Part shown: in pieces, positions 2,590-30,920 of the stretch
How the letters are laid out: each line of letters starts with the position of its first letter
Numbering within the stretch: position 1 is the first letter of the stretch
Origin: a virus
IMG/VR virus record: IMGVR_UViG_3300045988_121797
Direction: 5' to 3' (one strand)
DNA length: 30,920 bases
Translations under genes and position numbers: made by a program
The notes under the pieces: model-generated
What the model was told of the DNA's origin: nothing
Databases searched by the model: none
Seen by the model: the letters and a program-made list of their open reading frames with translations, nothing else

Positions 2590-3030
2590 ATGAACTACTT
2601 TAAGGCAGCGGAGCAAGTGCTCGGCTCCGTCCCTACGCTCAAAAGGGCGTTAGAAAATTTGAGAAACAGAGAGCAACGCCTAATCGAGCAGGGCAAGCCG
2701 CGCGAGCCTGGGGCTATCGACTATAGCAAGCCTTTTACGGACTCGCATTTTGTAAGCGACACTCTTAACGAGCTTTTGGAGCTTTCGGAGTGCTCCCGAA
2801 ATATCGCAGAAACAGAGCGCACGCTCGCGGAGGTTGAGGGCATTATAGAGCAGCTCTCCGACGAGCATAAAAAAGTCGTCGTTTTGTGGTATATCGAGAA
2901 ACGCTCAAAAGAGGCTATAGCGGAGGCTTTGTATGTGGAGTCGCCTACGACGGTTTACAACCTCCGAAATAAAGCCGTAGCGGAGTTTGCTTTACTCTAC
3001 TACGGAGCCTCTGCGCTGCCCTCAATTTAG
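2590..3030 (+). CDS. Putative late-gene transcriptional activator (ArpU / sigma-70 region-4-like HTH)
   Basis: 146 aa. C-terminal VVVLWYIEKRSKEAIAEALYVESPTTVYNLRNKAVAEFA resembles a sigma region 4 HTH. It sits directly upstream of the packaging module. Confidence 0.5.
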   Translation: MNYFKAAEQVLGSVPTLKRALENLRNREQRLIEQGKPREPGAIDYSKPFTDSHFVSDTLNELLELSECSRNIAETERTLAEVEGIIEQLSDEHKKVVVLWYIEKRSKEAIAEALYVESPTTVYNLRNKAVAEFALLYYGASALPSI

Positions 3031-4199: not shown

Positions 4200-5848
4200 A
4201 TTGGGTTAAAGAATACTACCGCCGCATAGAGAGCGGCGAAATAGTTACGAGCAGGCGCGTTAAAGCCGTCTACTCTCGCCTCGTGGCGGAAATGGACTCA
4301 CCCGCACCCGATTTTCCGTATTATTTCGACGAGGAAACGGGCGAGCGTCCTATACTCTTTATCGAAACATTTTGCAAGCAATCACAAGGAACTATCGGAG
4401 CTCCGCTAAAGCTCGAGCTTTTCCAAAAAGCATTTATACAGCTCCTTTTCGGTTGGCTTGAAAAAGACACGGACTACCGACGCTTTCGAGAAACTATGTT
4501 TTTGTGCGGGCGTAAAAACGGTAAGTCTACTTTGCTTTCGGGCATTGCGTTATATATGCTGATTGCCGACTATGAGGGCGCAGCGGAAATATACTCCGTA
4601 GCGACCAAAAAAGACCAGGCAAAAAAGGTACTTACCGAGGCTGTCAATATGATTAAACAATCTCCCGAGCTACGGGCGGTTGTTAAAAAGCGGAGAAATG
4701 ATGTTTATTTCCCTGCTACCTCCTCCGTGTTTGAGGCTCTCGCCTCGGACTCAAACACCCTCGACGGCTTGAACTCTCACGCCGTTATTATAGACGAGCT
4801 GCACGCTATCCGCGACAGAAACCTATACGAGGTTATGAAACAGTCCACCTCCTCGCGCCGTCAACCTCTCGTCGTTATGATTACGACAGCGGGTACGGTG
4901 CGCGAGTGCATTTTTGACAATATGTACGAGCTTGCCTGCGACCTCGCAGACGGAAAGAAAAAGGACGACACCTTTTTACCTATCCTCTACGAAATCGACA
5001 GCCGCGACGAGTGGACTAACCCGCAAATGTGGATTAAAGCTAACCCAGGGCTCGGAGCTATCAAGCAATATAAAACCCTTGCCGCCTTTGTCGAGAGGGC
5101 TAAAAACAATCCCGCCGACCTACCAGGTGTGCTATGCAAGGATTTTAACTACCGCGAGAACGATAATAGCGTATGGCTCTCTTACGACCAAATTAAAAAC
5201 GACGCTGTTTTCGATATGTCGGAGGTGTACAACACCTACGCTATAGGCGGCTGCGACCTCTCGGCTACTACCGACTTAACGGCGGCAACGCTGTTAATAC
5301 GCAAGCCCGACGACAAGACGGTGTATGTATTGCAGCACTATTTCCTCCCGCAGGCTCGCGTAGAGCACCTCGAGGAAAAGAATACAAACGAGGCTCCCTA
5401 TAGGCTATGGGCTGACCGTGGCTTGCTTACTATCTGCGACGGCAACCGCGTTACTTTTTCTGATGTTACGGCGTGGTTTTGTCAAATGCGCGACGAGCAC
5501 AAAATAGACGCTTTCAAAGTTGGCTATGACCGAGCGTTAGCGGGCTATTGGGTGGAGGAAATGAAAAGCAACGGCTTTACTATGGAGCCCGTGGCGCAGG
5601 GTCCTTTTACCTGGAGCCAACCTATGCGAGAAATGGGAGCGGCTTTCGCGGACAAGATAGTAAACTACAACAAAAACCCGATTTTAATTTGGTGCCTATC
5701 CAATACGGCAGTAAAGAAAAGCGGGGTTAATAATATTCAACCTGTTAAGATAACCGATAAACGCCGCATTGACGGGGCGGTATCGCTGCTTAATGCTTGG
5801 GTTATCTATGTAAAATATTACGACGACTTTATGTACAATGTGGGGTGA
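4196..5848 (+). CDS. terL: Terminase large subunit
   Basis: 550 aa. Walker A CGRKNGKST and Walker B VIIDELH, with a C-terminal nuclease-like region. Confidence 0.92.
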   Translation: MNWVKEYYRRIESGEIVTSRRVKAVYSRLVAEMDSPAPDFPYYFDEETGERPILFIETFCKQSQGTIGAPLKLELFQKAFIQLLFGWLEKDTDYRRFRETMFLCGRKNGKSTLLSGIALYMLIADYEGAAEIYSVATKKDQAKKVLTEAVNMIKQSPELRAVVKKRRNDVYFPATSSVFEALASDSNTLDGLNSHAVIIDELHAIRDRNLYEVMKQSTSSRRQPLVVMITTAGTVRECIFDNMYELACDLADGKKKDDTFLPILYEIDSRDEWTNPQMWIKANPGLGAIKQYKTLAAFVERAKNNPADLPGVLCKDFNYRENDNSVWLSYDQIKNDAVFDMSEVYNTYAIGGCDLSATTDLTAATLLIRKPDDKTVYVLQHYFLPQARVEHLEEKNTNEAPYRLWADRGLLTICDGNRVTFSDVTAWFCQMRDEHKIDAFKVGYDRALAGYWVEEMKSNGFTMEPVAQGPFTWSQPMREMGAAFADKIVNYNKNPILIWCLSNTAVKKSGVNNIQPVKITDKRRIDGAVSLLNAWVIYVKYYDDFMYNVG

Positions 5849-5852
5849 GAAA

Positions 5853-7172
5853 ATGAAAGAAAGACGAGGACTTTTTGAGGCTATCTTTGGCAAAAAGCCG
5901 CAGACTCTCGACGGCTATACCGAGTATAAGCTCCTCAATTCCTACCAATCGAATTTTGTACCGTTTTCGGGCAATGCCTGGGAGGTAAACACCGTCCGCG
6001 CTGCTATTCACTCTTTCGCCCGCAGAGCGGCAAGAGTACAGCCGCGACATATCCGAAAAGGTGACGGAAAATTGCAAGATGTGGAGAGCAGCTCGCTTAA
6101 CTACATTTTGCAGTATCAACCTAACCCGTTGACTACGGCTTACAAATTCTACTACCGCGCAGCGGCGCAGTACAAGCTCTATAACAACGCTTTTATTTTT
6201 CCCGTGTGGAATGAATACACGGGCAGGCTCGAGGCTATGTACAATATCAACGCCCAGGAAATAAAGCTGCTTGAGCACCAGGGCGAGCTGTTTTTGAAAT
6301 TCCGCTTTTACAACGGGAAAACCTACACTTTCCCGTACACGGATATTATACATATCGGCTCTATGTTTGCCGATAACGAGCTTTTCGGCAGTAATAACGA
6401 GGCTTTATTGCCCGTATTGAAAACCGCAAACACCTTTAACCAATCTATGAGCAAATTTGCCGAGCTTGTGGCGGTTGTGCGCGGTATTTTGAAAGTTGCA
6501 GCCTCTACCAAAAACGAGGACTTAAAAGCACGACGCGACGACTTTATACGAGATAACCTCAAAATGGAGAATAACGGCGCGGGCGTTATCGTTACCGACA
6601 ATAAGTATGATTATACCCCTATCAACGACAAGCAAACGCCGCTACCTCAAGGGCAGCTCTTGTATATTAAGTCCGAAATTTACGACTATTTCGGCACTAA
6701 CGAGGCTATCGTGCAGAATAAGGCAACGCCCGAGCAAGAGGACGACTTTTACGAGGGCGAAATTAGACCGTTTTTTATGCAGCTTGAGCAGGCTTTTACA
6801 AATTGTTTCTTTACCCGCAAAGAGCGCGGCTTTGGTAATTTGATTGTCGCAGAGGGAAACAAGCTCCAATATGCGAAACTCTCCGACAAGCTCGCAGCGG
6901 TTAAGTACCTCTCCGAAATTGGCGGCTTAATGCTCGACCAGGCGTTAGTAACGCTCGGCTTTCCGCCTATCGGCGGCGAGGAAGGCAAACGCCGCGTACA
7001 GACGCTCAATATGGTTAATGCGGCAAAGGCTGACGAGTACCAATTAGGCGACAAGGGAAAAGAAAAAACACCGCCCGCAGGCACCGAGGACGACGAGGAC
7101 GACCTCGAGGACGGTACCGCACCCGCTGCGGCACCAAAAAAGGGCGAGAACAACGGAGAGGAGGACGAGTAA
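5853..7172 (+). CDS. Portal protein (HK97-type)
   Basis: About 440 aa between terL and the prohead protease, with an acidic C-terminal tail. ATG at 5853 follows the terL stop; the track start at 5838 is the alternative. Confidence 0.88.
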   Translation: MKERRGLFEAIFGKKPQTLDGYTEYKLLNSYQSNFVPFSGNAWEVNTVRAAIHSFARRAARVQPRHIRKGDGKLQDVESSSLNYILQYQPNPLTTAYKFYYRAAAQYKLYNNAFIFPVWNEYTGRLEAMYNINAQEIKLLEHQGELFLKFRFYNGKTYTFPYTDIIHIGSMFADNELFGSNNEALLPVLKTANTFNQSMSKFAELVAVVRGILKVAASTKNEDLKARRDDFIRDNLKMENNGAGVIVTDNKYDYTPINDKQTPLPQGQLLYIKSEIYDYFGTNEAIVQNKATPEQEDDFYEGEIRPFFMQLEQAFTNCFFTRKERGFGNLIVAEGNKLQYAKLSDKLAAVKYLSEIGGLMLDQALVTLGFPPIGGEEGKRRVQTLNMVNAAKADEYQLGDKGKEKTPPAGTEDDEDDLEDGTAPAAAPKKGENNGEEDE

Positions 7173-18631: not shown

Positions 18632-20335
18632 ATGGAAATTAGGCAAAAACTTTCTCTCGATTTTGGCAGAGATACGCACCCTATTACGGTATTTGCAAAG
18701 CAGAACGACACAAAAACCCGTTTTCTTGAAATTACCCCGCTTAATTGCGGGCAGGCTTACGCTATCGAGGACGGCGTAACGCCCCGCTTGCAGCTTACCA
18801 AAGCTGACGGGCATACCGTACTCAATGACGCAACCGTAGAAAACGGCGTTATCGTTGTCGAACTGACACCGCAGGCACTCGCAGCCGCAGGCGTGGCGGT
18901 TGCCGAAATCGGACTTTATAAGGGCGAGGCTCTCTTGAGCTCGCAAATTTTCTATATTGATGTGGAGCGGGCGGCTTTTGATAAAGACGCACCCGCAAGC
19001 TCCGACGAGTTTAACGCTCTTACCGCTGCTCTTGCGGAGGTTAATACCGTAGCAGAGAGAGCGGCTACTATTGCCTCGGAAATTGCAAACGAGGCAGCAG
19101 ACAACGCCAACGGCGCAGCCGAGGGCGCGGAAAAGGTTAATATTTCAGCGGTGCAGACCGAAACGGGCGCGACTATCAGCGTAACCGACAGAGAGGGTAC
19201 TGTAACCACCGTACATATTGACACGCTTACAGCGGTTAATACCTGGGAGGATATTAAAAACGCCGTCCGCCTCGGACTCGGTGCAAAACTATTTCCCGTT
19301 GGTTACGAGTTTACAACCGAGGACGCTACTACGGGAGCGGTTATTACCTGGGTTGTACGCGACCACGACAAGCACGCAGCGGCAAACGGTAAGCTCGCTC
19401 ACAGTATGACGCTCGAGGCAAAGTATGTATACAGCAACAGCGCGGGCACCTACTTAACCCTCGTATTTGACGCATACGAGGCACTTTACTACGCAGCCGA
19501 GGAAATCCCCGCAGGCACTTATAATTTTACCTGGAATTATGCTACGGGCAGTATGGTAAACGGTACCTATCAATTTACATTGACAAAAGCGGTACCCGCA
19601 GGCGGGCAAATTGTGCTCGGTACTAACTCGAGCTCTACCGCAATTACGGGCTGCAAGATTGCGACTTACGCTACCGTGGCGGCTACTGCTGCTATTGAGA
19701 GCGGTATTGTTGTTACAGAGGGCTCGGAGGGTACAAGCCTCGGCACCATTGCCGCGACATCTGCCACAAGCGAAAACCTTAATTGCGCTCAACGCATTAT
19801 GTGGGGCTCCAACAACTACGCACAGAGCGCGGCTCGTCAATGGCTCAACAGCGACGCAGCGGCGGGCTCCGTGTGGACTCCTACAAACAAATTTGACCGC
19901 GCCCCGTCCTGGGCTACCTCTAAAGCGGGCTTTATGAAAGGCTTACCCGCCGACTTTTTGGCAGCGGTACAGCCTGCGGCTATTCCTTGCCGCACTAACT
20001 CCGTATTTGAGGTAAACAGCCTCGACGGTACCGAGTATACCGTAAACACGGTATACACCTTAAACGATATGTTTTTTATGCTCTCTCGTCCCGAAATATA
20101 CGGCTCTTGGGACAGCTCCTCCATTAAAGACGGCGAGCTGTTGGAGTATTACGAGGGCTTAACCGATATTGAGCGTATCAAATATGACGCGGCGGGCTCG
20201 GCGCGTAACTGTTGGCTCCGATCCCCTTACCCTGGGTACGCGGGCAGCGAGCGCATTGTGAACACCTCGGGAGCGTTGGGCCACGGCAGCGCGATTATCG
20301 GTAACGGAGTCGCCCCCGCTTGTATAATCGCATAA
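18632..20335 (+). CDS. DGR target protein 1: BppU_N-like N-terminus, coiled coil, and a C-type-lectin-fold C-terminus carrying VR1
   Basis: 567 aa. The N-terminus resembles the baseplate upper protein Ig-like domain. The C-terminus NCWLRSPYPGYAGSERIVNTSGALGHGSAIIGNGVAPACIIA aligns to TR. Confidence 0.85.
   Translation: MEIRQKLSLDFGRDTHPITVFAKQNDTKTRFLEITPLNCGQAYAIEDGVTPRLQLTKADGHTVLNDATVENGVIVVELTPQALAAAGVAVAEIGLYKGEALLSSQIFYIDVERAAFDKDAPASSDEFNALTAALAEVNTVAERAATIASEIANEAADNANGAAEGAEKVNISAVQTETGATISVTDREGTVTTVHIDTLTAVNTWEDIKNAVRLGLGAKLFPVGYEFTTEDATTGAVITWVVRDHDKHAAANGKLAHSMTLEAKYVYSNSAGTYLTLVFDAYEALYYAAEEIPAGTYNFTWNYATGSMVNGTYQFTLTKAVPAGGQIVLGTNSSSTAITGCKIATYATVAATAAIESGIVVTEGSEGTSLGTIAATSATSENLNCAQRIMWGSNNYAQSAARQWLNSDAAAGSVWTPTNKFDRAPSWATSKAGFMKGLPADFLAAVQPAAIPCRTNSVFEVNSLDGTEYTVNTVYTLNDMFFMLSRPEIYGSWDSSSIKDGELLEYYEGLTDIERIKYDAAGSARNCWLRSPYPGYAGSERIVNTSGALGHGSAIIGNGVAPACIIA
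20195..20323 (+). repeat. DGR variable region VR1
   Basis: Gap-free 129-nt alignment to TR 20809-20937 with 15 differences. Fourteen are at TR adenines and one is a silent T/A. Confidence 0.9.
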
Positions 20336-20343
20336 TCTAAAAT

Positions 20344-20361
20344 CCGCCTCGGTAGAGGCGG
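20344..20361 (+). promoter_or_regulatory. GC-rich hairpin downstream of VR1 (candidate DGR target-recognition hairpin/cruciform)
   Basis: ccgcctc-GGTA-gaggcgg: a 7-bp stem with a 4-nt loop, 20 nt after the end of VR/TR homology. Confidence 0.6.
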
Positions 20362-20379
20362 TAAAAAGGAGGTTTTAAT

Positions 20380-20790
20380 ATGAGCGTTAGAAAAGGCGAC
20401 AGAGGCGAGGGCAAGCTGCAAGTGCTTAATAAAGCTCGAGAGCTTAAAAAGTATTCATTAGCAGCACTCAAAAACGAGAAACACTTTCCAAAAAGTACCC
20501 GTTGGCTTTATGCCTCGCCGATTGCTACAGAGGTACGCGAGGCGTGTATTTGCATACGGCACGCTAACTCGGTATATGTAACCAACGCCGAGGAGCACAG
20601 CTACCGCCGTATGGAGCAAGTAAAGGCGCACGCACACCTCGACGCTCTATTAGACCTTATCGACGACGCATACGACGCGGGCTATATTTCGGGTGATAAA
20701 GCGGAGTTTTGGACGGGGTTAATACTCAAGACAGACGACCTATTAAAAGCCTGGATAAAGTCCGACAAAGAAAAATACAAAGATATGTAG
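20380..20790 (+). CDS. avd: DGR accessory variability determinant (Avd-like four-helix-bundle protein)
   Basis: 136 aa, basic and helical, located between VR and TR exactly as in BPP-1. SD aaaggagg lies upstream. Confidence 0.75.
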   Translation: MSVRKGDRGEGKLQVLNKARELKKYSLAALKNEKHFPKSTRWLYASPIATEVREACICIRHANSVYVTNAEEHSYRRMEQVKAHAHLDALLDLIDDAYDAGYISGDKAEFWTGLILKTDDLLKAWIKSDKEKYKDM

Positions 20791-20808
20791 GGCGGTTGCT
20801 ATATTTTC

Positions 20809-20937
20809 GGCTCGGCGCGTAACTGTTGGCTCCGTTCCCCTAACCCTGGGAACGCGAACAACGAGCGCAATGTGAACACCTCGGGAGCGTTGAACAACAA
20901 CAACGCGATTAACGGTAACGGAGTCGCCCCCGATTGT
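20809..20937 (+). repeat. DGR template repeat (TR)
   Basis: Its position is non-coding, 18 nt after the avd stop. It is rich in AAC (aac aac aac aac) and homologous to VR1 and to VR2 (from 20842). Confidence 0.9.
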
Positions 20938-21024
20938 GAGAATAGCCCGTATCAAGTAGTCAATAGACCAAAGCAGCGCAGCTCACACAAGGAGCGACCG
21001 TCCTACCTCCGAAAGGAGGGAATA

Positions 21025-22149
21025 TTGCGGGCGACAAAGGTACCTTACGGGGTAGTCCTTTTATATGCGTCCGCCTACTTTATTATGTCATACGAACAAG
21101 TAATATCTTTTGACAACCTCTACAAGGGGTTAAAACAAAGCTGCCGTAATATCCGTTGGAAAGATAGTACCGTAGGCTATGAGGGCAACGCCCTAAAGAA
21201 TACTTACCGCTTACGAGAAAGCCTCTTGAGCGGCAAATACAAAATAGATAGGCACCAACACTTTACCATATACGAGCCGAAACGCCGCGACATTGTGGCG
21301 ACCAGGTTAAAAGACCGACAATTTCAACGCTCGCTATGTGATAACGGACTTTATGAGCAGATAACGAAATCGTTTATAACTGATAATTGCGCCTGCCTGC
21401 GCGGGCGTGGAGTCGATTATACCCTAAACCGTATCACGGCGCATTTACGCCGTTATTATAAAGCTCACGGCTGCGACGGGTGGGTGCTCAAGTGTGATAT
21501 ACACCACTATTTCCCGAGCATACGCCACGACATAGCAAAGGCTGCAATATGTAAGCGGGTTAAAGACGCTCAAATAGCGGCGCACGCCTGCGACATTGTA
21601 GACTCTTTCGGCGGTGATGTTGGTATAGGGCTCGGCTCCCAGGTATCGCAGCTTGTAGCTCTTGCCGTCCTGGACGACCTCGACCACTTTATAAAAGAGC
21701 GGCTCCGAGTCAAGCACTATATACGATATATGGACGATTTTATACTAATCCACGAGGACAAGGAATTTTTGCAGCATTGCCGCGTGGAGATAGAAAAGCA
21801 AGTAAACGCTATCGGGCTTGAGCTCAACGGCAAAACTACTCTCTATCCTCTCCGCCAGGGCGTAAAAATGTTGCAATGGCGTTTTATCGTTACCGACTCG
21901 GGAGCGATTATACGCAAAATGGGTAAAAAGAAACAAGGCAAGCAACGCCGCAAGCTCAAAAAGCTATACGCTAAAGAGCAGAGCGGCGACTATGCGCCAG
22001 GGACGGCTCACGAGTCCCTCGTTTCTTGGCTTGCAAACGCTGCCCGAGGAGATACCTACCACGAGCGGCGGAAAATGATAAATTTCTATAAAGAATTGGA
22101 GGGCTCTTATCGTGAAAAACAATTACCACAAACGCCTCGCCCAGGTTGA
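21025..22149 (+). CDS. DGR reverse transcriptase
   Basis: Motif C IRYMDDFILIH, the DGR-type IGLGSQVSQ motif, and an N-terminal FDNLYKGLKQS region. TTG at 21025 has SD aaggaggg 5 nt upstream. ATG at 21085 is an alternative. The track start at 20872 lies inside TR. Confidence 0.9.
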   Translation: MRATKVPYGVVLLYASAYFIMSYEQVISFDNLYKGLKQSCRNIRWKDSTVGYEGNALKNTYRLRESLLSGKYKIDRHQHFTIYEPKRRDIVATRLKDRQFQRSLCDNGLYEQITKSFITDNCACLRGRGVDYTLNRITAHLRRYYKAHGCDGWVLKCDIHHYFPSIRHDIAKAAICKRVKDAQIAAHACDIVDSFGGDVGIGLGSQVSQLVALAVLDDLDHFIKERLRVKHYIRYMDDFILIHEDKEFLQHCRVEIEKQVNAIGLELNGKTTLYPLRQGVKMLQWRFIVTDSGAIIRKMGKKKQGKQRRKLKKLYAKEQSGDYAPGTAHESLVSWLANAARGDTYHERRKMINFYKELEGSYREKQLPQTPRPG

Positions 22150-26150: not shown

Positions 26151-26187
26151 GAGAGGGAGCGTAACGGCTCCCTCTCTTTGTCTTTTT
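26151..26187 (+). terminator. Strong rho-independent terminator
   Basis: gagagggagc-gtaacg-gctccctctc forms a perfect 10-bp stem, followed by tttgtcttttt. Confidence 0.8.
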
Positions 26188-26213
26188 ATATGATAAAACG
26201 GAGTGATTTTATT

Positions 26214-27251
26214 ATGGCATACAAACATTTAACCTTTAACGACAGATTAAAAATTGAGGCTTGGCAAAAGGTAGGTACCTCCCCTCGAGTAATGGCTGAA
26301 AAGCTCGGCGTACATATCAGCACTATTTATAGAGAGCTCAAGCGCGGACAGTATGAGCACCTTAATTCCGATTATACCACCGAGCAGAGATACAGCCCCG
26401 ATATTGCCGAGGAGAAAAACCAGGCTAACCTACGCGCTAAAGGTGCGCCGCTTAAAATCGGCTCCGACCACGAGTACGCGCAGTATATCGAGTATAAAAT
26501 AAGAGTAGAGAAATACTCTCCCCGCGCCGTCCTGGGCGAAATCAAACGCCAGGGCGTAGAGTTTAGTACGAGCATATCGGCTCCGACTCTGTACCGCTAT
26601 ATCGAGCAGGGCGTTTTCCTCACTATCACAAACGACAATTTACCTGTTAAGAGAAATAAGAGCACCCGCAAATATAAGAAAGTGAGAGCGGCTCGCGCCT
26701 CCAAAGGTGAGAGCATAGAAAAACGCCCCGCAGAGATTGCGGAGCGTAACACTTTCGGACATTGGGAAATGGATTGCGTAGAGGGCAAGAAAGGCACTAA
26801 AAAAACTATGCTCGTATTGACCGAGCGTTATACCCGCTACGAGATTATCCGCATTATGAAAGACCACACCGCCGCAAGCGTCGTAAAAGCCCTTAACGGT
26901 ATCGAGCGGGCATACGGCGCAGACTTTTATAAAATCTTTCAAAGTATCACCATAGACAACGGCTCCGAGTTTTCCGATTATGAGGGACTCGAGCAGAGCT
27001 GCCGCCGCGTCGGCACCCGTACAAAGGTATATTACTGCCACCCGTACAGCTCATACGAGCGCGGCTCAAATGAAAATCAAAATAAAATGATACGCCGCCA
27101 CTACCCGAAAGGCGTTAGCTTTGAGCGGGTAACGCCTGCCGACACACGCAGGCTTGAAAAGTGGATAAACAATTATCCGAGAGGGATTTTTAACTATTTT
27201 ACCTCCGCAGACCTCTACGAGGCGTGCGTAAATAGCCTTTTATCTGCCTAA
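26214..27251 (+). CDS. IS30-family DDE transposase
   Basis: 345 aa. N-terminal HTH LTFNDRLKIEAWQKVGTSPRVMAEKLGVHISTIYRELKRG. Catalytic core HWEMDCVEG...ITIDNGSEFSDY...SYERGSNENQNKMIRR. Confidence 0.9.
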   Translation: MAYKHLTFNDRLKIEAWQKVGTSPRVMAEKLGVHISTIYRELKRGQYEHLNSDYTTEQRYSPDIAEEKNQANLRAKGAPLKIGSDHEYAQYIEYKIRVEKYSPRAVLGEIKRQGVEFSTSISAPTLYRYIEQGVFLTITNDNLPVKRNKSTRKYKKVRAARASKGESIEKRPAEIAERNTFGHWEMDCVEGKKGTKKTMLVLTERYTRYEIIRIMKDHTAASVVKALNGIERAYGADFYKIFQSITIDNGSEFSDYEGLEQSCRRVGTRTKVYYCHPYSSYERGSNENQNKMIRRHYPKGVSFERVTPADTRRLEKWINNYPRGIFNYFTSADLYEACVNSLLSA

Positions 27252-27504: not shown

Positions 27505-27756
27505 ATGACTTGCCGATACCTCACCTACGAGGACAGAAAGAGCATTGAGGCTCTTTATGCAGCAGGCGTAAGCCTCGCCGACATTGCCTCCGAGCTCGGA
27601 GTACACCTCGCCACTATTTATAGAGAAATGACGCGAGGCGGAACGGGTGAGCTCGACGGTAACGGGCGTAGCGGCTATAGTGCCGAGCTTGCACAAAAGA
27701 CCGTACAAGACAGTATCAAACGCCGAGGGCACCGAAAACCCGCCACGGCGCAGTAA
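27505..27756 (+). CDS. Standalone IS30-type HTH protein (transposase N-terminal domain only)
   Basis: 83 aa. MTCRYLTYEDRKSIEALYAAGVSLADIASELGVHLATIYREMTRGG aligns with residues 1-45 of the transposase at 26214 (about 21/45 identical). There is no DDE core. Confidence 0.7.
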   Translation: MTCRYLTYEDRKSIEALYAAGVSLADIASELGVHLATIYREMTRGGTGELDGNGRSGYSAELAQKTVQDSIKRRGHRKPATAQ

Positions 27757-27789
27757 AACAAAATAAAAATAAAACGGAGTGATTTTATT

Positions 27790-28716
27790 ATGATTAAACT
27801 TTTAATAGGCGGCTCCCCTTGCACAAAGTGGAGCGTAGCAAGAACGAAAGACAGAGAAACCACAGCAAGCGGGATAGGTTGGGAATTGTTTGTAAATTAT
27901 CTTATTGCAAAGGCGAGGTTTAAGCCCGACCTTTTCTTATATGAAAACAACGAGTCCGCAGCCCCCGAAATTCAAGAGCAAATTAGCTACGAGCTCGGAG
28001 TAGAACTTGCACACATTAACAGCGGGCTATTATCTGCACAAAGCCGAGAGCGGTTTTATGCGTTTAATTGGGAAGCGGAAATGCCAAAGGAAAAAGGGCT
28101 TGTATTAAAAGATATTATACTGCCCGCCGAAGCGGTACCGAGCAAATATTGGTACACCGACAAGCCGTACACATTACTCGATACCGATAAGGTAGTATGT
28201 GCCTCGTTAGATATTAAGGCTATGGATATTATAAAGCGGGTACACAATATCAATTTCAAATCACCGACGCTTACTTGCGACGGAAAAGGCGGACACAGAG
28301 TAAAGAAAATCCTACAAGACGGGAAACCGAGAAAACTAATGCCTATCGAATACGAGAGGTTGCAAACGCTCCCCGACAACTACACTAAAGCTATAAGCGA
28401 TAGTCAGCGGTACAACACAATCGGCAACGGTTGGACGGCGGATATTATTATACATATTCTTTCCTATGCTCTCTCGGGCGTTGATAAAAACGAAAAAATA
28501 ATTGTTTTATCAATGTATGACGGTATAGCTACGGGCCGCTACTGCCTGGATAAAATGGGATTTACAAATGTTGAGTATTACGCTATCGAAATTGACGAAC
28601 ACGCAAAGAAAGTAGCTAACGACAATTACCCCGATATTATGCAGTACGGCGACGCTTTCCAAATGAGGGATAACGCCTTTAATATAAACGGTTTGCTTTC
28701 GGAGGTGATTATATGA
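27790..28716 (+). CDS. DNA (cytosine-5) methyltransferase with circularly permuted motif order
   Basis: Motifs: IV LLIGGSPCTKWS (aa 4-15), VI FLYENN (49-54), VIII SAQSRERF (82-89), IX RKLMPIEYERLQTLPDNYT (181-199), X IGNGWT (211-216), I VLSMYDGIATG (239-249), II YYAIEID (263-269), III YGDAF (286-290). Confidence 0.8.
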   Translation: MIKLLIGGSPCTKWSVARTKDRETTASGIGWELFVNYLIAKARFKPDLFLYENNESAAPEIQEQISYELGVELAHINSGLLSAQSRERFYAFNWEAEMPKEKGLVLKDIILPAEAVPSKYWYTDKPYTLLDTDKVVCASLDIKAMDIIKRVHNINFKSPTLTCDGKGGHRVKKILQDGKPRKLMPIEYERLQTLPDNYTKAISDSQRYNTIGNGWTADIIIHILSYALSGVDKNEKIIVLSMYDGIATGRYCLDKMGFTNVEYYAIEIDEHAKKVANDNYPDIMQYGDAFQMRDNAFNINGLLSEVII

Positions 28717-29162
28717 AAGCTGTTAAGTGCCCGCAATGCGGACACGAATTTACACCCGAGCGGGCAGCAGTTAAGACGGGAGCTTGGACTACCGAGGAGG
28801 ACGAGCTGCTGTTACACGGGTACCAAAAGGAGCGTAAGACTATCGCGCAGCTTTCCGAGGAGCTTAACCGCACCCAGGACGCAACGCGCAACCGTCTATA
28901 TTTGCTCCGTGGCGGAGGCAAGCCTAAAGGCGTAAACGCAAGCGTGCAGCTCTCGGCGAAAGAATTTGACGAAATGAGAGCGGCTCGCACCGAGGTTAAG
29001 AACGCCCGAAAGGTTGTAGAGCAGGCGAAAGCCACCGAGCGCGAGCTCTCCGCCTTTTATGCCCTGGGTAAACAGTTACTCAATGCAAGGCAAAACAAGC
29101 GCGCTATAGCCCCGCTTTTTGCGGAGCTGCAAAAGTTAGTAGATACATACGAAAATTTTTAG
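28713..29162 (+). CDS. Zinc-ribbon plus Myb/SANT-like DNA-binding protein (putative regulator)
   Basis: 149 aa. CPQCGHEF, then WTTEEDELLLHGYQKERKTIAQLSEELNRTQDATRNRLYLL. The start overlaps the methylase stop (ATGA). Confidence 0.45.
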   Translation: MKAVKCPQCGHEFTPERAAVKTGAWTTEEDELLLHGYQKERKTIAQLSEELNRTQDATRNRLYLLRGGGKPKGVNASVQLSAKEFDEMRAARTEVKNARKVVEQAKATERELSAFYALGKQLLNARQNKRAIAPLFAELQKLVDTYENF

Positions 29163-29175
29163 GAGGTAAAACCTT

Positions 29176-29865
29176 ATGAATAGCAGCATTTTAACCGCTA
29201 TTGAGTCCCTATGCGACGATATAGCAACCAACACCAACCCAGAGGAAAACAAGAAAAGAGCCGAGGCGGTTGTTTCTCTTGCCTTTGCGGGCATTTTTAC
29301 ACCCGCAGAATATGACGACGAATACGAGGACGAAAGCTCCGAGGGTGAAGCGGCACCCGTTGCAGATGTGAGCAAGGTACCGCAGGCGGGCGAGCGTTTT
29401 ACCCGTGGCGGTATTGAGTTTGTCGCTCTCGGTATGGAGCAAGGCGGCGTACTTGCCGTAGCTGCAAAACGACTCGAGGACGAAATGGCATACGACGAGG
29501 ACGGCTCCAACGATTGGCGCAAATCCTCTCTCCGTAAATACCTCAACGAGGAGTTTGTAAAGAATTTCGATAAAGGCGACCTCCTCCCGTTTGTTTCCGA
29601 CCTCACCTCCGACGACGGTATGACCGACTACGGCACCTCCGAGGACTTTGTGGCGTTGCTTTCGGACAACCTTTACCGCAAGTACCGTAAGTTTATGCCT
29701 AAATATGATACCTGGGTATGGACTATTACTCCCTGGAGCTGCCTCCCTGGGAACGCGAGCAGCGAGCGCTATGTGAACACCTCGGGAGCGTTGAACGGCA
29801 ACTACGCGATTTACGGTTACGGAGTCGCCCCCGCTTGTATTTTTAATCCCGAAATCTTTAAGTAA
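29176..29865 (+). CDS. DGR target protein 2 (remote): acidic N-terminus plus a C-type-lectin-like C-terminal domain carrying VR2
   Basis: 229 aa. WRKSSLRKYLNEEF, then WSCLPGNASSERYVNTSGALNGNYAIYGYGVAPACIF aligned to TR. No signal peptide or TM segment is seen. Confidence 0.8.
   Translation: MNSSILTAIESLCDDIATNTNPEENKKRAEAVVSLAFAGIFTPAEYDDEYEDESSEGEAAPVADVSKVPQAGERFTRGGIEFVALGMEQGGVLAVAAKRLEDEMAYDEDGSNDWRKSSLRKYLNEEFVKNFDKGDLLPFVSDLTSDDGMTDYGTSEDFVALLSDNLYRKYRKFMPKYDTWVWTITPWSCLPGNASSERYVNTSGALNGNYAIYGYGVAPACIFNPEIFK
29743..29838 (+). repeat. DGR variable region VR2
   Basis: Gap-free 96-nt alignment to TR 20842-20937 with 11 differences, all at TR adenines. Confidence 0.88.
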
Positions 29866-29868
29866 TCT

Positions 29869-29882
29869 GCGCCGATAGGCGC
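29869..29882 (+). promoter_or_regulatory. GC-rich hairpin downstream of VR2 (candidate DGR target-recognition hairpin)
   Basis: gcgcc-GATA-ggcgc: a 5-bp stem plus one T-G wobble, with a 4-nt loop. It starts 30 nt after the end of VR2. Confidence 0.5.
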
Positions 29883-29896
29883 GTATGGAGGCTTAT

Positions 29897-30097
29897 ATGG
29901 GATATAGGAAAGTATCAGCAGCGGAGCAAATTTATTACATTATTAAATATGCGGTGCGGCGGGCGGTAAAACGCCTCCGCTCCCGCCTGCGCCATTGGCT
30001 AAAGCGCGGCAAAGGCTGCCGCCATTGTTGCCTATGGTGTAAATATTTCGAGCAATGCAGCTCGGAGGAGGTAGACAATGAAACTAAAACAAATTGA
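29897..30097 (+). CDS. Hypothetical basic Cys-rich small protein
   Basis: MGYRKVSAAEQ...GCRHCCLWCKYFEQC. SD ggagg lies 5 nt upstream of the ATG at 29897; the track start at 29885 is the alternative. Confidence 0.35.
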   Translation: MGYRKVSAAEQIYYIIKYAVRRAVKRLRSRLRHWLKRGKGCRHCCLWCKYFEQCSSEEVDNETKTN

Positions 30098-30677
30098 GGC
30101 GATATTAAAAGCCGAAAAAACAATAATCGTTTCCGAAACGCCCTCTTGTCAATGGCTCGGAAACGGTGCGGCATTTTACCCCGTATACAATTTGCCAAAA
30201 CTGACGCAAGACAACATCTTTACTATGTTTGATATTGCGGAGGACAAGCGGGACAAATTCTATTTTGAGGAGCGGGAGCTGCCCTCTTTTATAAATTTCG
30301 AGGACGGCGACGAGTCCGAGGAAATGCTCGACAGAGGCTCTATTGCATTTTACGCGCAAGGTAGAACGCTCGAGCCTCTCAAGACCTCCCAGGGCATAGC
30401 CTTTATAAATACAAGGTACTTAAAACCATTTACAGACTCTCAAGCAGGCTACGAATTGTACGAGCGTACCGACAAGCTCGGCAGACCGTACATTGTAGTA
30501 AAAAGCGGTTTTGTACTACTCGGCGTTATCTCTCCTTATGACCTGGTAAACGAGGGCTTTGTGCAGACTCTCGAGGAGATATTAAACCTATCCAAAGTAA
30601 CGCTCTTTAACAAACAAGAAAAGAGCCGAGCTGCGGACGGTTACAAACAAATCGAGCTCGGCGAGGAGGTGGAGTAA
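30078..30677 (+). CDS. Hypothetical protein
   Basis: 199 aa with SD ggaggagg upstream. I recognise no motif. Confidence 0.5.
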   Translation: MKLKQIEAILKAEKTIIVSETPSCQWLGNGAAFYPVYNLPKLTQDNIFTMFDIAEDKRDKFYFEERELPSFINFEDGDESEEMLDRGSIAFYAQGRTLEPLKTSQGIAFINTRYLKPFTDSQAGYELYERTDKLGRPYIVVKSGFVLLGVISPYDLVNEGFVQTLEEILNLSKVTLFNKQEKSRAADGYKQIELGEEVE

Positions 30678-30755
30678 ATGGAGGAAATTATTATTGCGCT
30701 CATTATCTGCGGCACAATCATTATTTTAGTGCGCGGCAACAATAAAAAGAAATAA
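30678..30755 (+). CDS. Possible 25-aa single-TM peptide
   Basis: MEEIIIALIICGTIIILVRGNNKKK. The ATG directly follows the previous stop, with ggaggtggag upstream. This rests on the ORF alone. Confidence 0.25.
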   Translation: MEEIIIALIICGTIIILVRGNNKKK

Positions 30756-30767
30756 GGAGCGGGCTAT

Positions 30768-30920
30768 ATGGATTTTCAGCAGCTTAACGAGGCTTTAATG
30801 AACGGATAGCCCGTAGAGCATAACGGTATCGTTTATAAATGTGTTTCGGCTATTATCAAGCGAAACAAGAACGGGAAACCCGTATACACCGCAGAGCTCA
30901 CAGATAGAAATAACAACAGC
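30768..30920 (+). pseudogene. Junction-spanning small ORF interrupted by one in-frame TAG (30807-30809)
   Basis: SD aaggag lies 8 nt upstream of the ATG at 30768. MDFQQLNEALMNG-TAG-PVEHNGIVYKCVSAIIKRNKNGKPVYTAELTDRNNNS... stays open to the window end and continues at 56-100. Confidence 0.35.
30866..30920. repeat. Terminal direct repeat, partner of 1-55
   Basis: Exact 55-nt identity with the window start. Confidence 0.95.

Follow-up and report, generated by a model that had tools for sequence, protein, structure and literature searches.

The 30,920-nucleotide viral DNA analysed here (the window; IMG/VR record IMGVR_UViG_3300045988_121797) encodes near its end a 308-residue protein, which a first-pass annotation made from the letters alone had taken for a phage-borne cytosine-C5 DNA methyltransferase (C5-MTase) with its motifs in circularly permuted order. 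The genomic setting agrees with the phage attribution: the window is a siphovirus-like genome of ~31 kb that encodes a large terminase subunit (TerL), a portal protein, a major head (capsid) protein, a tape measure protein, tail proteins, an endolysin, a dUTPase and a Rep protein. All ten C5-MTase motifs are present in the 308-residue protein, in the order IV-V-VI-VII-VIII-TRD-IX-X-I-II-III (TRD, target-recognition domain), and motifs IV, VI, VIII, IX, X, I, II and III all lie where the first-pass annotation had placed them, with the open reading frame (ORF) ending 18 residues past motif III. The chain begins directly at strand beta4, with the GGSPC of motif IV at residues 7-11, and continues through FLYENN of motif VI (residues 49-54), in which the third residue of the usual ENV is N, and motif VIII, which contains Q84, R86 and R88 of the QxRxR pattern. 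Beyond the TRD and motifs IX and X, the 9-residue linker LSGVDKNEK joins positions equivalent to the C- and N-termini of canonical enzymes. Only then come the motifs that bind S-adenosylmethionine (SAM): motif I (VLSMYDGIATG, residues 239-249), with a tyrosine replacing the phenylalanine of FxGxG (Y243-D244-G245-I-A-T-G249), motif II (YYAIEID, residues 263-269, with E267) and motif III (YGDAF, residues 286-290, with D288). A hidden N-terminal extension carrying motifs I-III can be ruled out, since the ATG used is the first possible start codon downstream of an in-frame stop in the ORF list and the upstream gene lies only 33 nt away. The Shine-Dalgarno-like GGAG, together with the overlap of the stop codon with the ATG of the next gene (ATGA at 28713-28716), fits an expressed gene within an operon (Table 1).

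To test the rotation we used a profile built from 19 canonical-order relatives (motifs I to X), and this profile is matched in two rotated pieces: residues 2-226 of the window protein correspond to profile positions 66-288 (E = 7.7e-86) and residues 237-299 to positions 1-63 (E = 2.4e-20). By these two matches the protein is a normal C5-MTase in exact circular permutation, in which no part is missing or duplicated, and they settle in the affirmative the homology of the C-terminal segment to methyltransferase motifs I-III, on which the first-pass annotation had made its proposal depend. Independent comparisons give the same picture: 1) Two stretches match Pfam PF00145, with a score of 71.2 bits (cut-off 22), and the main one pairs residues 2-223 with positions 62-318 of the 324 in that profile. 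2) In a sequence search of the PDB, residues 231-289 match the first 60 residues, with motifs I-III, of the DNMT3A/B catalytic domains (E ~1e-6 to 1e-7). 3) DNMT3C (8tci) is matched in three rotated pieces, with residues 233-280, 3-90 and 140-224 of the window protein corresponding to chain positions 2-49, 74-166 and 191-274, respectively. Hence, on the sequence evidence we regard it as certain that the protein is a circularly permuted C5-MTase with its new termini between motifs III and IV, the split domain being recovered in just the permuted order that had been predicted.

Table 1. Features of the permuted methyltransferase gene and its immediate surroundings (coordinates of the window)
Feature	Position	Strand	Basis
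Permuted C5-cytosine DNA methyltransferase, complete ORF, 308 aa plus stop	27790..28716	+	ORF reading; Pfam and canonical-profile matches
Strand beta4 and motif IV (IKLLIGGSPCT)	27793..27825	+	P10-C11, catalytic Pro-Cys, invariant in 61 homologues; model strand at residues 2-8
Motif V helix (residues 28-44) and motif VI strand FLYENN (residues 48-54)	27871..27951	+	E52-N53 invariant; conservation and model
Motif VIII, SAQSRERF (residues 82-89; R86, R88)	28033..28056	+	Conservation; profile alignment
Variable region/TRD (residues ~100-180), including conserved T160-L161	28087..28329	+	Aligned to the TRD of canonical relatives; other, longer inserts in relatives
Motif IX (RKLMPIEYERLQTLPDNYT, residues 181-199) and motif X (IGNGWT, residues 211-216, helix to residue 227)	28330..28470	+	
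New X-to-I linker, LSGVDKNEK (residues 228-236)	28471..28497	+	pLDDT ~97 over residues 221-240; outside the canonical-profile match
SAM-binding half, motifs I-III	28504..28659	+	Profile positions 1-63 of canonical relatives, E = 2.4e-20; N-terminal motifs of DNMT3A/B/C
18-residue C-terminal tail (QMRDNAFNINGLLSEVII)	28660..28713	+	Homologous to the III-IV linker of canonical relatives, through residue 299
Shine-Dalgarno-like GGAG, 10 nt upstream of the methyltransferase ATG	27776..27779	+	Direct sequence reading
Upstream neighbour, 83-aa DNA-binding protein resembling HTH_38 and the IS30 N-terminus	27505..27756	+	Conserved beside the methyltransferase in syntenic prophages
Downstream neighbour, 149 aa, weak Myb/HTH-like match, 4-nt overlap with the methyltransferase stop (translationally coupled)	28713..29162	+	

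An alignment of 61 permuted homologues, which are 54-98% identical to the window protein, was used to gauge conservation. Residues P10, C11, E52, N53, G212-N213-G214, D244, G245, G249, E267 and G287 are invariant in it, and R86, R88 and D288 are conserved in at least 90% of the sequences; GGSPC is found in 183 of the 204 permuted proteins described below. The ratio of non-synonymous to synonymous substitution rates (dN/dS) against two 78%-identical genes of Clostridia genomes is ~0.10, an approximate value as dS is near saturation. With the same alignment as input, AlphaFold2 returned one compact model with a mean predicted local distance difference test score (pLDDT) of 91.3 and a predicted template-modelling score (pTM) of 0.90, so that this check, which had been proposed at the outset, yields a single catalytic fold. 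Its elements run beta4, helix D, beta5, helix E, beta6, beta7, TRD, motif IX helix, motif X helix, beta1, helix B, beta2, helix C and beta3, and its sole soft region is the catalytic loop (residues 11-20), which is mobile in M.HhaI as well. The predicted fold is that of a class-I methyltransferase with a small TRD domain; the best Foldseek matches in the PDB are all C5-MTases (M.HhaI, M.MpeI, the plant enzymes NtDRM/DRM2, DNMT3A/B/C and M.HaeIII), with a probability of 1.00 for M.HhaI, M.MpeI, DRM and DNMT3. The TM-scores to these structures are limited to ~0.6, as happens when a sequential aligner meets a permutant, and hence understate the similarity. A full-length fold match was absent from the viral structure library searched with Foldseek, where the best TMq of the same sequential aligner was 0.62.

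The first-pass annotation had implied a one-off arrangement, a view that the survey of relatives overturns. We combined a word-indexed sequence search with an exhaustive search of 50%-identity cluster representatives; the former recovered many full-length relatives of ~300 residues and the latter 6968 matches with E<1e-3, of which 716 reach E<1e-30. Motif order was classified in 270 retrieved proteins by three sub-queries covering motifs IV-VIII (A), IX-X (B) and I-III (C). Of these, 204 have the permuted order A-B-C, a group to which 86 of the 150 best 50%-identity representatives belong, and 34 have the canonical order C-A-B; two are fused double enzymes (C-A-B-C-A-B), and the others are fragments or show rarer orders (AB, A, BC, AC, split A or B, BCA, BCAB). 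The N-terminus coincides exactly with beta4 in 155 of the 204 permuted proteins. A scan of one genome per species uncovered 310 loci encoding a relative of the window protein, and the best 80 of these are nearly all from gut or rumen Clostridia, 61 of the 80 having an intact permuted gene; the carriers in this best set belong to the Oscillospiraceae, Ruminococcaceae, Lachnospiraceae, Acutalibacteraceae and Christensenellaceae. Cultured carriers include Butyricicoccus pullicaecorum DSM 23266, Lachnospira eligens BIOML-A1 and Flavonifractor sp. An82. Splits or frameshifts affect some relatives, such as those at loci L045 and L066 and in the phage record MT835543. Deposited phages with the permuted form comprise only Phage nd4 and uncultured human-gut phage records, among which MT835543 looks frameshifted and MT836645 was judged permuted by its tblastn match alone. 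The isolated Morganella phage vB_Mm5, Bacteroides phage BU2-2, Vibrio phage 1.147.O, Pelagibacter phage HTVC309P and Psychrobacillus phage Perkons, as well as MedDCM-S42C7, were considered as further carriers and rejected, as their enzymes are all in canonical order. The complete genome of Phage nd4 (OR777945.1; locus L002, 4001-5677) encodes a 558-residue permuted member, WRQ08028.1, in which the TRD is long and ~100 extra residues form a C-terminal tail. Current annotation hides the family: WRQ08028.1 is labelled a 'hypothetical protein', the best PHROG match (phrog_17284) is of 'unknown function', and the JGI name for members is 'DNA (cytosine-5)-methyltransferase 3A' (DNMT3A). Judged by these comparisons, the window gene belongs to a phage-associated family of C5-MTases, large and conserved, whose motifs run IV to X and then I to III.

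Within this family the TRD appears to be a swappable part. The segment separating motifs VIII and IX spans 0 to 449 residues, and the relatives of ~400 residues are 65-80% identical in their N- and C-terminal thirds and unrelated in their middle parts. Single linkage at loose thresholds chained all TRDs together, and at the stricter thresholds that we therefore used they fall into 21-51 clusters. A prophage syntenic with the window (locus L089) carries a 407-residue allele of the methyltransferase with conserved ends and a different TRD. Such diversity implies sequence-specific DNA recognition and, as the TRD retains its normal position in the chain, recognition should work as in M.HhaI-like enzymes.

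The relationships within the subfamily bear on how the rotation came about. In a neighbour-joining tree, computed with 200 bootstraps from three conserved blocks that were concatenated in canonical order (214 columns, 91 permuted representatives), 89 of the 91 permuted representatives fall in one clade, and in 92% of the bootstraps at least 85 of the 91 share one side of a split with at most three canonical units. The nearest canonical relatives in the tree are P0205, P0220 and P0223, and these are the nearest for both halves of the window protein, which suggests that the parents were the same gene or close paralogues. Fused double canonical enzymes are found in P0125 (962 residues), P0164 (618 residues) and at locus L073 (597 residues, 4995-6788). 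Adjacent canonical genes with overlapping stop and start codons are present in Ruminococcus albus AR67 (L037, 3928-5888), R. flavefaciens Y1 (L039, 4026-6241), R. callidus (L040, 4155-6241) and, as ORF136/137, Psychrobacillus phage Perkons (L095, 580-2322). Tandem pairs, fused double enzymes and the permutant together represent all the stages that permutation by duplication requires, and thus support an origin in a tandem fusion; the gene pairs and double C5-MTases are candidate permutation intermediates and possibly bispecific enzymes. The ends of the window protein carry the corresponding trace, for the III-IV linker reads LGDAFGVESWDIWNIDLLLGGSPC in the canonical P0223, and the window protein ends with YGDAFQMRDNAFNINGLLSEVII and starts with MIKLLIGGSPC; its tail aligns with the canonical linker through residue 299, and its last residues (GLL...) may be a vestige of a second beta4. 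The tandem duplication and truncation at both ends envisaged by the first-pass annotation is thereby rendered plausible. Most likely, the family arose once, from a canonical-order DNMT3-like phage methyltransferase, by a tandem fusion that then lost its first I-III and its last IV-X. Two further proteins of the same subfamily show another arrangement, with IX-X preceding I-III and IV-VIII: P0246 (301 residues, B-C-A) and P0233 (556 residues, B-C-A-B). These may reflect a break like that of M.BssHII or be left over from a fusion, which would hint at more than one type of permutation in this clade, or they may be truncated gene calls.

The surroundings of the gene bear on its likely role. Locus L089 is a prophage inside a 481-kb bacterial contig, with the same gene order as the window: an HTH_38 gene, the methyltransferase, a 150-residue ORF, a gene for a 229-residue DUF6273 protein, and then SLT, Rep and further genes. 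The end of the window (27505-30920: HTH_38, methyltransferase, 149-residue ORF, DUF6273) continues in this order into its start (SLT, 97-756; Rep, 1197-1976; a 146-residue ORF, 2590-3030). This end-to-start synteny, identical to that of L089, indicates that the window is essentially a whole, circularly closed phage genome of ~31 kb; the contig from which it comes measures 31,075 bp. Other permuted members sit in phage replication or early modules with genes for ERF, SSB, Gam, a DnaA/IstB-like loader, Bro/ANT proteins or an integrase, sometimes beside a second methyltransferase, and throughout these contexts the genes alongside serve phage replication, regulation or structure. In the window and five other contexts no restriction endonuclease adjoining the methyltransferase was evident, with the qualification that small unannotated ORFs were not exhaustively excluded. 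The G+C content of the gene is 42.7%, as against 48.7% for the whole window, which fits a cassette exchanged between phages. At locus L091 (5001-10578) the permuted P0116 is followed directly by a 527-residue Dam-like/DUF4942 protein and, further on, by an IS605-type TnpA/TnpB pair, which looks like modification genes and mobile elements clustered within a prophage.

Two other elements of the window lie close to the methyltransferase. A gene for an IS30-family DDE transposase (26178-27251) is located ~540 nt upstream, followed by that for the 83-residue HTH_38 protein, which resembles a transposase N-terminus; a DNA segment of the transposase gene (26302-26347) is repeated with 78% identity in the HTH_38 gene (27593-27638). 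In L089 host genes directly abut the HTH_38 gene (4718-4969). An attachment site is probably situated between the IS30-like gene and the HTH_38 gene, and the IS30-like enzyme may be the phage integrase rather than an inserted insertion sequence (IS). The window also contains a diversity-generating retroelement (18632-22149 and 29176-29865), with a reverse transcriptase ORF (20872-22149), a template repeat of 129 nt (~20809-20937) and two variable repeats: one (20195-20323) at the C-terminus of a tail-fibre-like protein with BppU_N and DUF6273 domains, the other (29710-29838) at the C-terminus of the 229-residue DUF6273 protein encoded ~460 nt downstream of the methyltransferase. Mismatches between the template and the variable repeats are mostly at template adenines.

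Taken together, sequence and model lead us to propose, with a probability of roughly 0.75, that the gene encodes a complete, orphan phage DNA (cytosine-5)-methyltransferase that is probably active, is permuted between motifs III and IV, and belongs to a family with a single origin by tandem fusion. The chain would start with beta4 and its Pro-Cys, pass through motifs V-VIII, the TRD and IX-X, and then reach the SAM-binding beta1-beta2-beta3 unit via the 9-residue linker; the N-terminal beta4 would come to lie beside the C-terminal beta1 and thereby rebuild the usual seven-stranded sheet. Catalysis is predicted to follow the standard chemistry: once the target cytosine has been flipped out, Cys11 would attack its C6 and Glu52 would protonate N3, with SAM, bound by D244/G245/G249, E267 and D288, as the methyl donor. 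To judge from the gene's context, the enzyme would methylate the phage DNA and, in lysogens, the host DNA too. Such methylation might protect the phage against host restriction, and TRD swapping among related phages might track host specificities.

Several observations weigh against parts of this proposal. The NCBIfam model TIGR00675 (dcm) scores 61.6, under its cut-off of 100.65, although a split match of this kind is what a permuted protein would be expected to give. Motif VI reads ENN rather than ENV in 182 of the 204 family members, motif IV has PC-T in place of PC-Q, and motif I has Y in place of F. The same signatures occur in some canonical relatives, none of which is to our knowledge characterised, and they might affect kinetics or substrate. 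The packing of beta4 beside beta1 is deduced from the order of the secondary-structure elements, the pTM and the fold matches, and the anti-restriction role from genomic context. As regards the single origin, three canonical units (P0125 unit 2, P0259 and P0267) nest in or beside the permuted clade in about half of the bootstraps, and at least 85 of the 91 permuted representatives split off with zero canonical units in only 49% of them, so that a reversion or more than one origin is possible. That the order arose several times, or by shuffling of segments instead of one tandem fusion and truncation, gains further support from the long-branch permuted P0229, P0240 and P0247, which lie among canonical proteins in the tree. 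We nonetheless consider it unlikely in view of the cohesion of the clade in 92% of the bootstraps, the identical breakpoint, the shared ENN, GDAF and SMYDG signatures and the fusion intermediates observed.

The alternatives concerning the protein itself can be weighed against the same data. It might be an inactivated relic, in which IV-X of one methyltransferase gene and I-III of the next, adjacent or duplicated, are left over from a former enzyme, as the first-pass annotation had allowed. In its favour, the subfamily does contain tandem canonical pairs and fusions, there is an IS30-family gene upstream, and some relatives are split or frameshifted. Yet both ends of the chain are preserved across 204 proteins from many contexts that lack an IS, the residues for catalysis and SAM binding are invariant or nearly so, dN/dS of ~0.1 indicates purifying selection, a confident single fold is predicted, and a TRD that diversifies while its scaffold is conserved would be senseless in a pseudogene; hence we find a relic hardly credible. 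Truncation mediated by an IS was likewise considered and rejected, as the identical N-terminus recurs in many IS-free contexts despite the IS30-family gene in the window. An obligate domain-swapped homodimer, in which each catalytic half would be completed by the SAM-binding unit at the C-terminus of its partner chain, has precedents in the beta-class amino-methyltransferases, which have the same motif order and work as dimers (PMC7544214), and in the nearest solved relatives, DRM and DNMT3, which function as dimers or tetramers according to the titles of their entries. The monomer, though, is modelled with a pTM of 0.90 and a pLDDT of ~97 in the X-to-I linker. In canonical C5-MTases the two chain ends lie near each other (PMC5944983), so that a 9-residue linker suffices, and the TRD keeps its place between VIII and IX, in contrast to the beta class, where an opposed TRD makes dimerisation necessary. 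Swapping, which the first-pass annotation had raised, is thus not needed and in our estimate quite improbable. A protein with intact fold might, finally, have another activity, such as RNA methylation like Dnmt2 or modification of another base or group, tied to the family-wide departures from the ENV, PCQ and FxGxG consensus (ENN, PC-T and Y-D-G). To this we assign a very low probability, given that the TRD with its T-L motif, like motifs IX and X, is of the kind usual in DNA enzymes and can be aligned with M.HhaI, DNMT3 and DRM, that the gene resides in phage replication/early modules beside other DNA methyltransferases, and that the diverse TRDs speak for recognition of specific DNA sequences.

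The proposed permuted C5-MTase may be set beside the enzymes known so far. C5-MTases are a textbook case of constant motif order, for which reviews list one bacterial exception, the M.BssHII type, along with plant DRM. The natural permuted C5-MTases comprise M.BssHII, M.Alw26I, M2.Eco31I, M.Esp3I, M2.BsaI and 22 more in REBASE (Albert et al. 2018, PMC5944983). They are bacterial circular permutants thought, as we propose here, to come from duplication or fusion, and all of them break in the variable region (Type H), patterns near motifs II-IV being described as ones that 'do not seem to occur' naturally, with nature favouring routes that keep both domains intact (PMC5944983). As the first-pass annotation had suggested, the breakpoint of the window protein differs from both exceptions. 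In the M.BssHII type the break lies between VIII and the TRD and IX-X precede I-VIII, whereas in the window protein it lies inside the large catalytic domain, between beta3 and beta4, with IV-VIII and the TRD preceding IX-X, an order that excludes membership in Type H (zeta). Plant DRM (NtDRM, 4onj/4onq; DRM2, 7l4c) is the best sequence match among solved structures, colinear over residues 44-294 of the window protein, and both have VI-X before I-III and belong to the DNMT3-like branch. DRM, on the other hand, is eukaryotic and breaks between V and VI, so that its motif IV is C-terminal (chain positions 309-328) rather than at residues 4-23 as in the window protein. It also carries UBA domains. 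A special kinship with DRM can be dismissed, as it tops the PDB list only through its more colinear segments, with different breakpoints and similar scores for DNMT3.

In the beta-class N6-adenine/N4-cytosine amino-methyltransferases (M.PvuII, M.RsrI, CcrM, M.EcoP15I) motif IV is followed by the TRD and then by motif I (Woodcock et al., PMC7544214), which is the linear plan of the window protein. They have (D/N/S)PP(Y/F) and an opposite-facing TRD forcing dimers, where the window protein has PC and a TRD and IX-X of C5 type, and the best sequence and fold matches of the latter are all C5 enzymes; hence the resemblance is one of analogy and not of membership. Canonical DNMT3-like phage C5-MTases are also close, e.g. 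gp46 of Bacteroides phage BU2-2, MM5_175 of Morganella phage vB_Mm5, NVP1147O_55 of Vibrio phage 1.147.O, gp4 of Pelagibacter phage HTVC309P and the metagenomic P0205, P0220 and P0223. With these the window protein shares the subfamily, 30-50% identity, the short TRD type and the orphan phage context, as well as the signatures GGSPCT, GNGW and LS(L/M)(F/Y)DG. It differs from their I-X order in being its exact rotation, broken between III and IV.

This III/IV topology appears not to have been described previously. A full-text literature search turned up no natural III/IV C5-MTase permutant, leaving aside closed-access papers and REBASE notes that may mention one, and within those bounds the novelty considered by the first-pass annotation holds. 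The one published REBASE screen for permuted C5-MTases could not have seen the family, since its motif I pattern matches none of the 204 permuted proteins, which have S-M-Y-D-G-I-[GA]. On balance we favour the view that the family is the first recognised natural class of C5-MTases permuted inside the catalytic domain, a large and active one in phages of gut and rumen Clostridia with living intermediates. If so, the published rule that nature permutes C5-MTases in the variable region only would be overturned, and the DNMT3-like branch would have been permuted at least twice independently, in the window family and in plant DRM. The compact scaffold with its many swappable TRDs would be a potential source of new 5-methylcytosine specificities. 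As such genes are easily mis-annotated and missed by pattern-based screens, studies of phage and gut methylomes may fail to assign 5-methylcytosine motifs to them. The findings should thus be of interest for the evolution of methyltransferases and of protein topologies and for the epigenomics of phages and microbiomes. The topology does have counterparts made in the laboratory. Permutants of M.HaeIII (Peisajovich et al. 2006, as recounted in PMC5944983) and of M.MpeI/M.SssI ('Type B/C'), derived from a tandem duplicate, were active when the N-terminus was placed between II and III, in III, or between III and IV, in the case of M.HaeIII with a start between III and IV and in that of M.MpeI/M.SssI nearby (PMC5944983). 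Weaker SAM binding has been suggested as a possibility for permutants near motifs II-IV (Albert et al.). The family described here would be the natural counterpart of these engineered enzymes: a topology reached by directed evolution of M.HaeIII also used in nature, with tandem genes, fusion and permutant forming a natural series in which the evolution of protein topologies can be studied.

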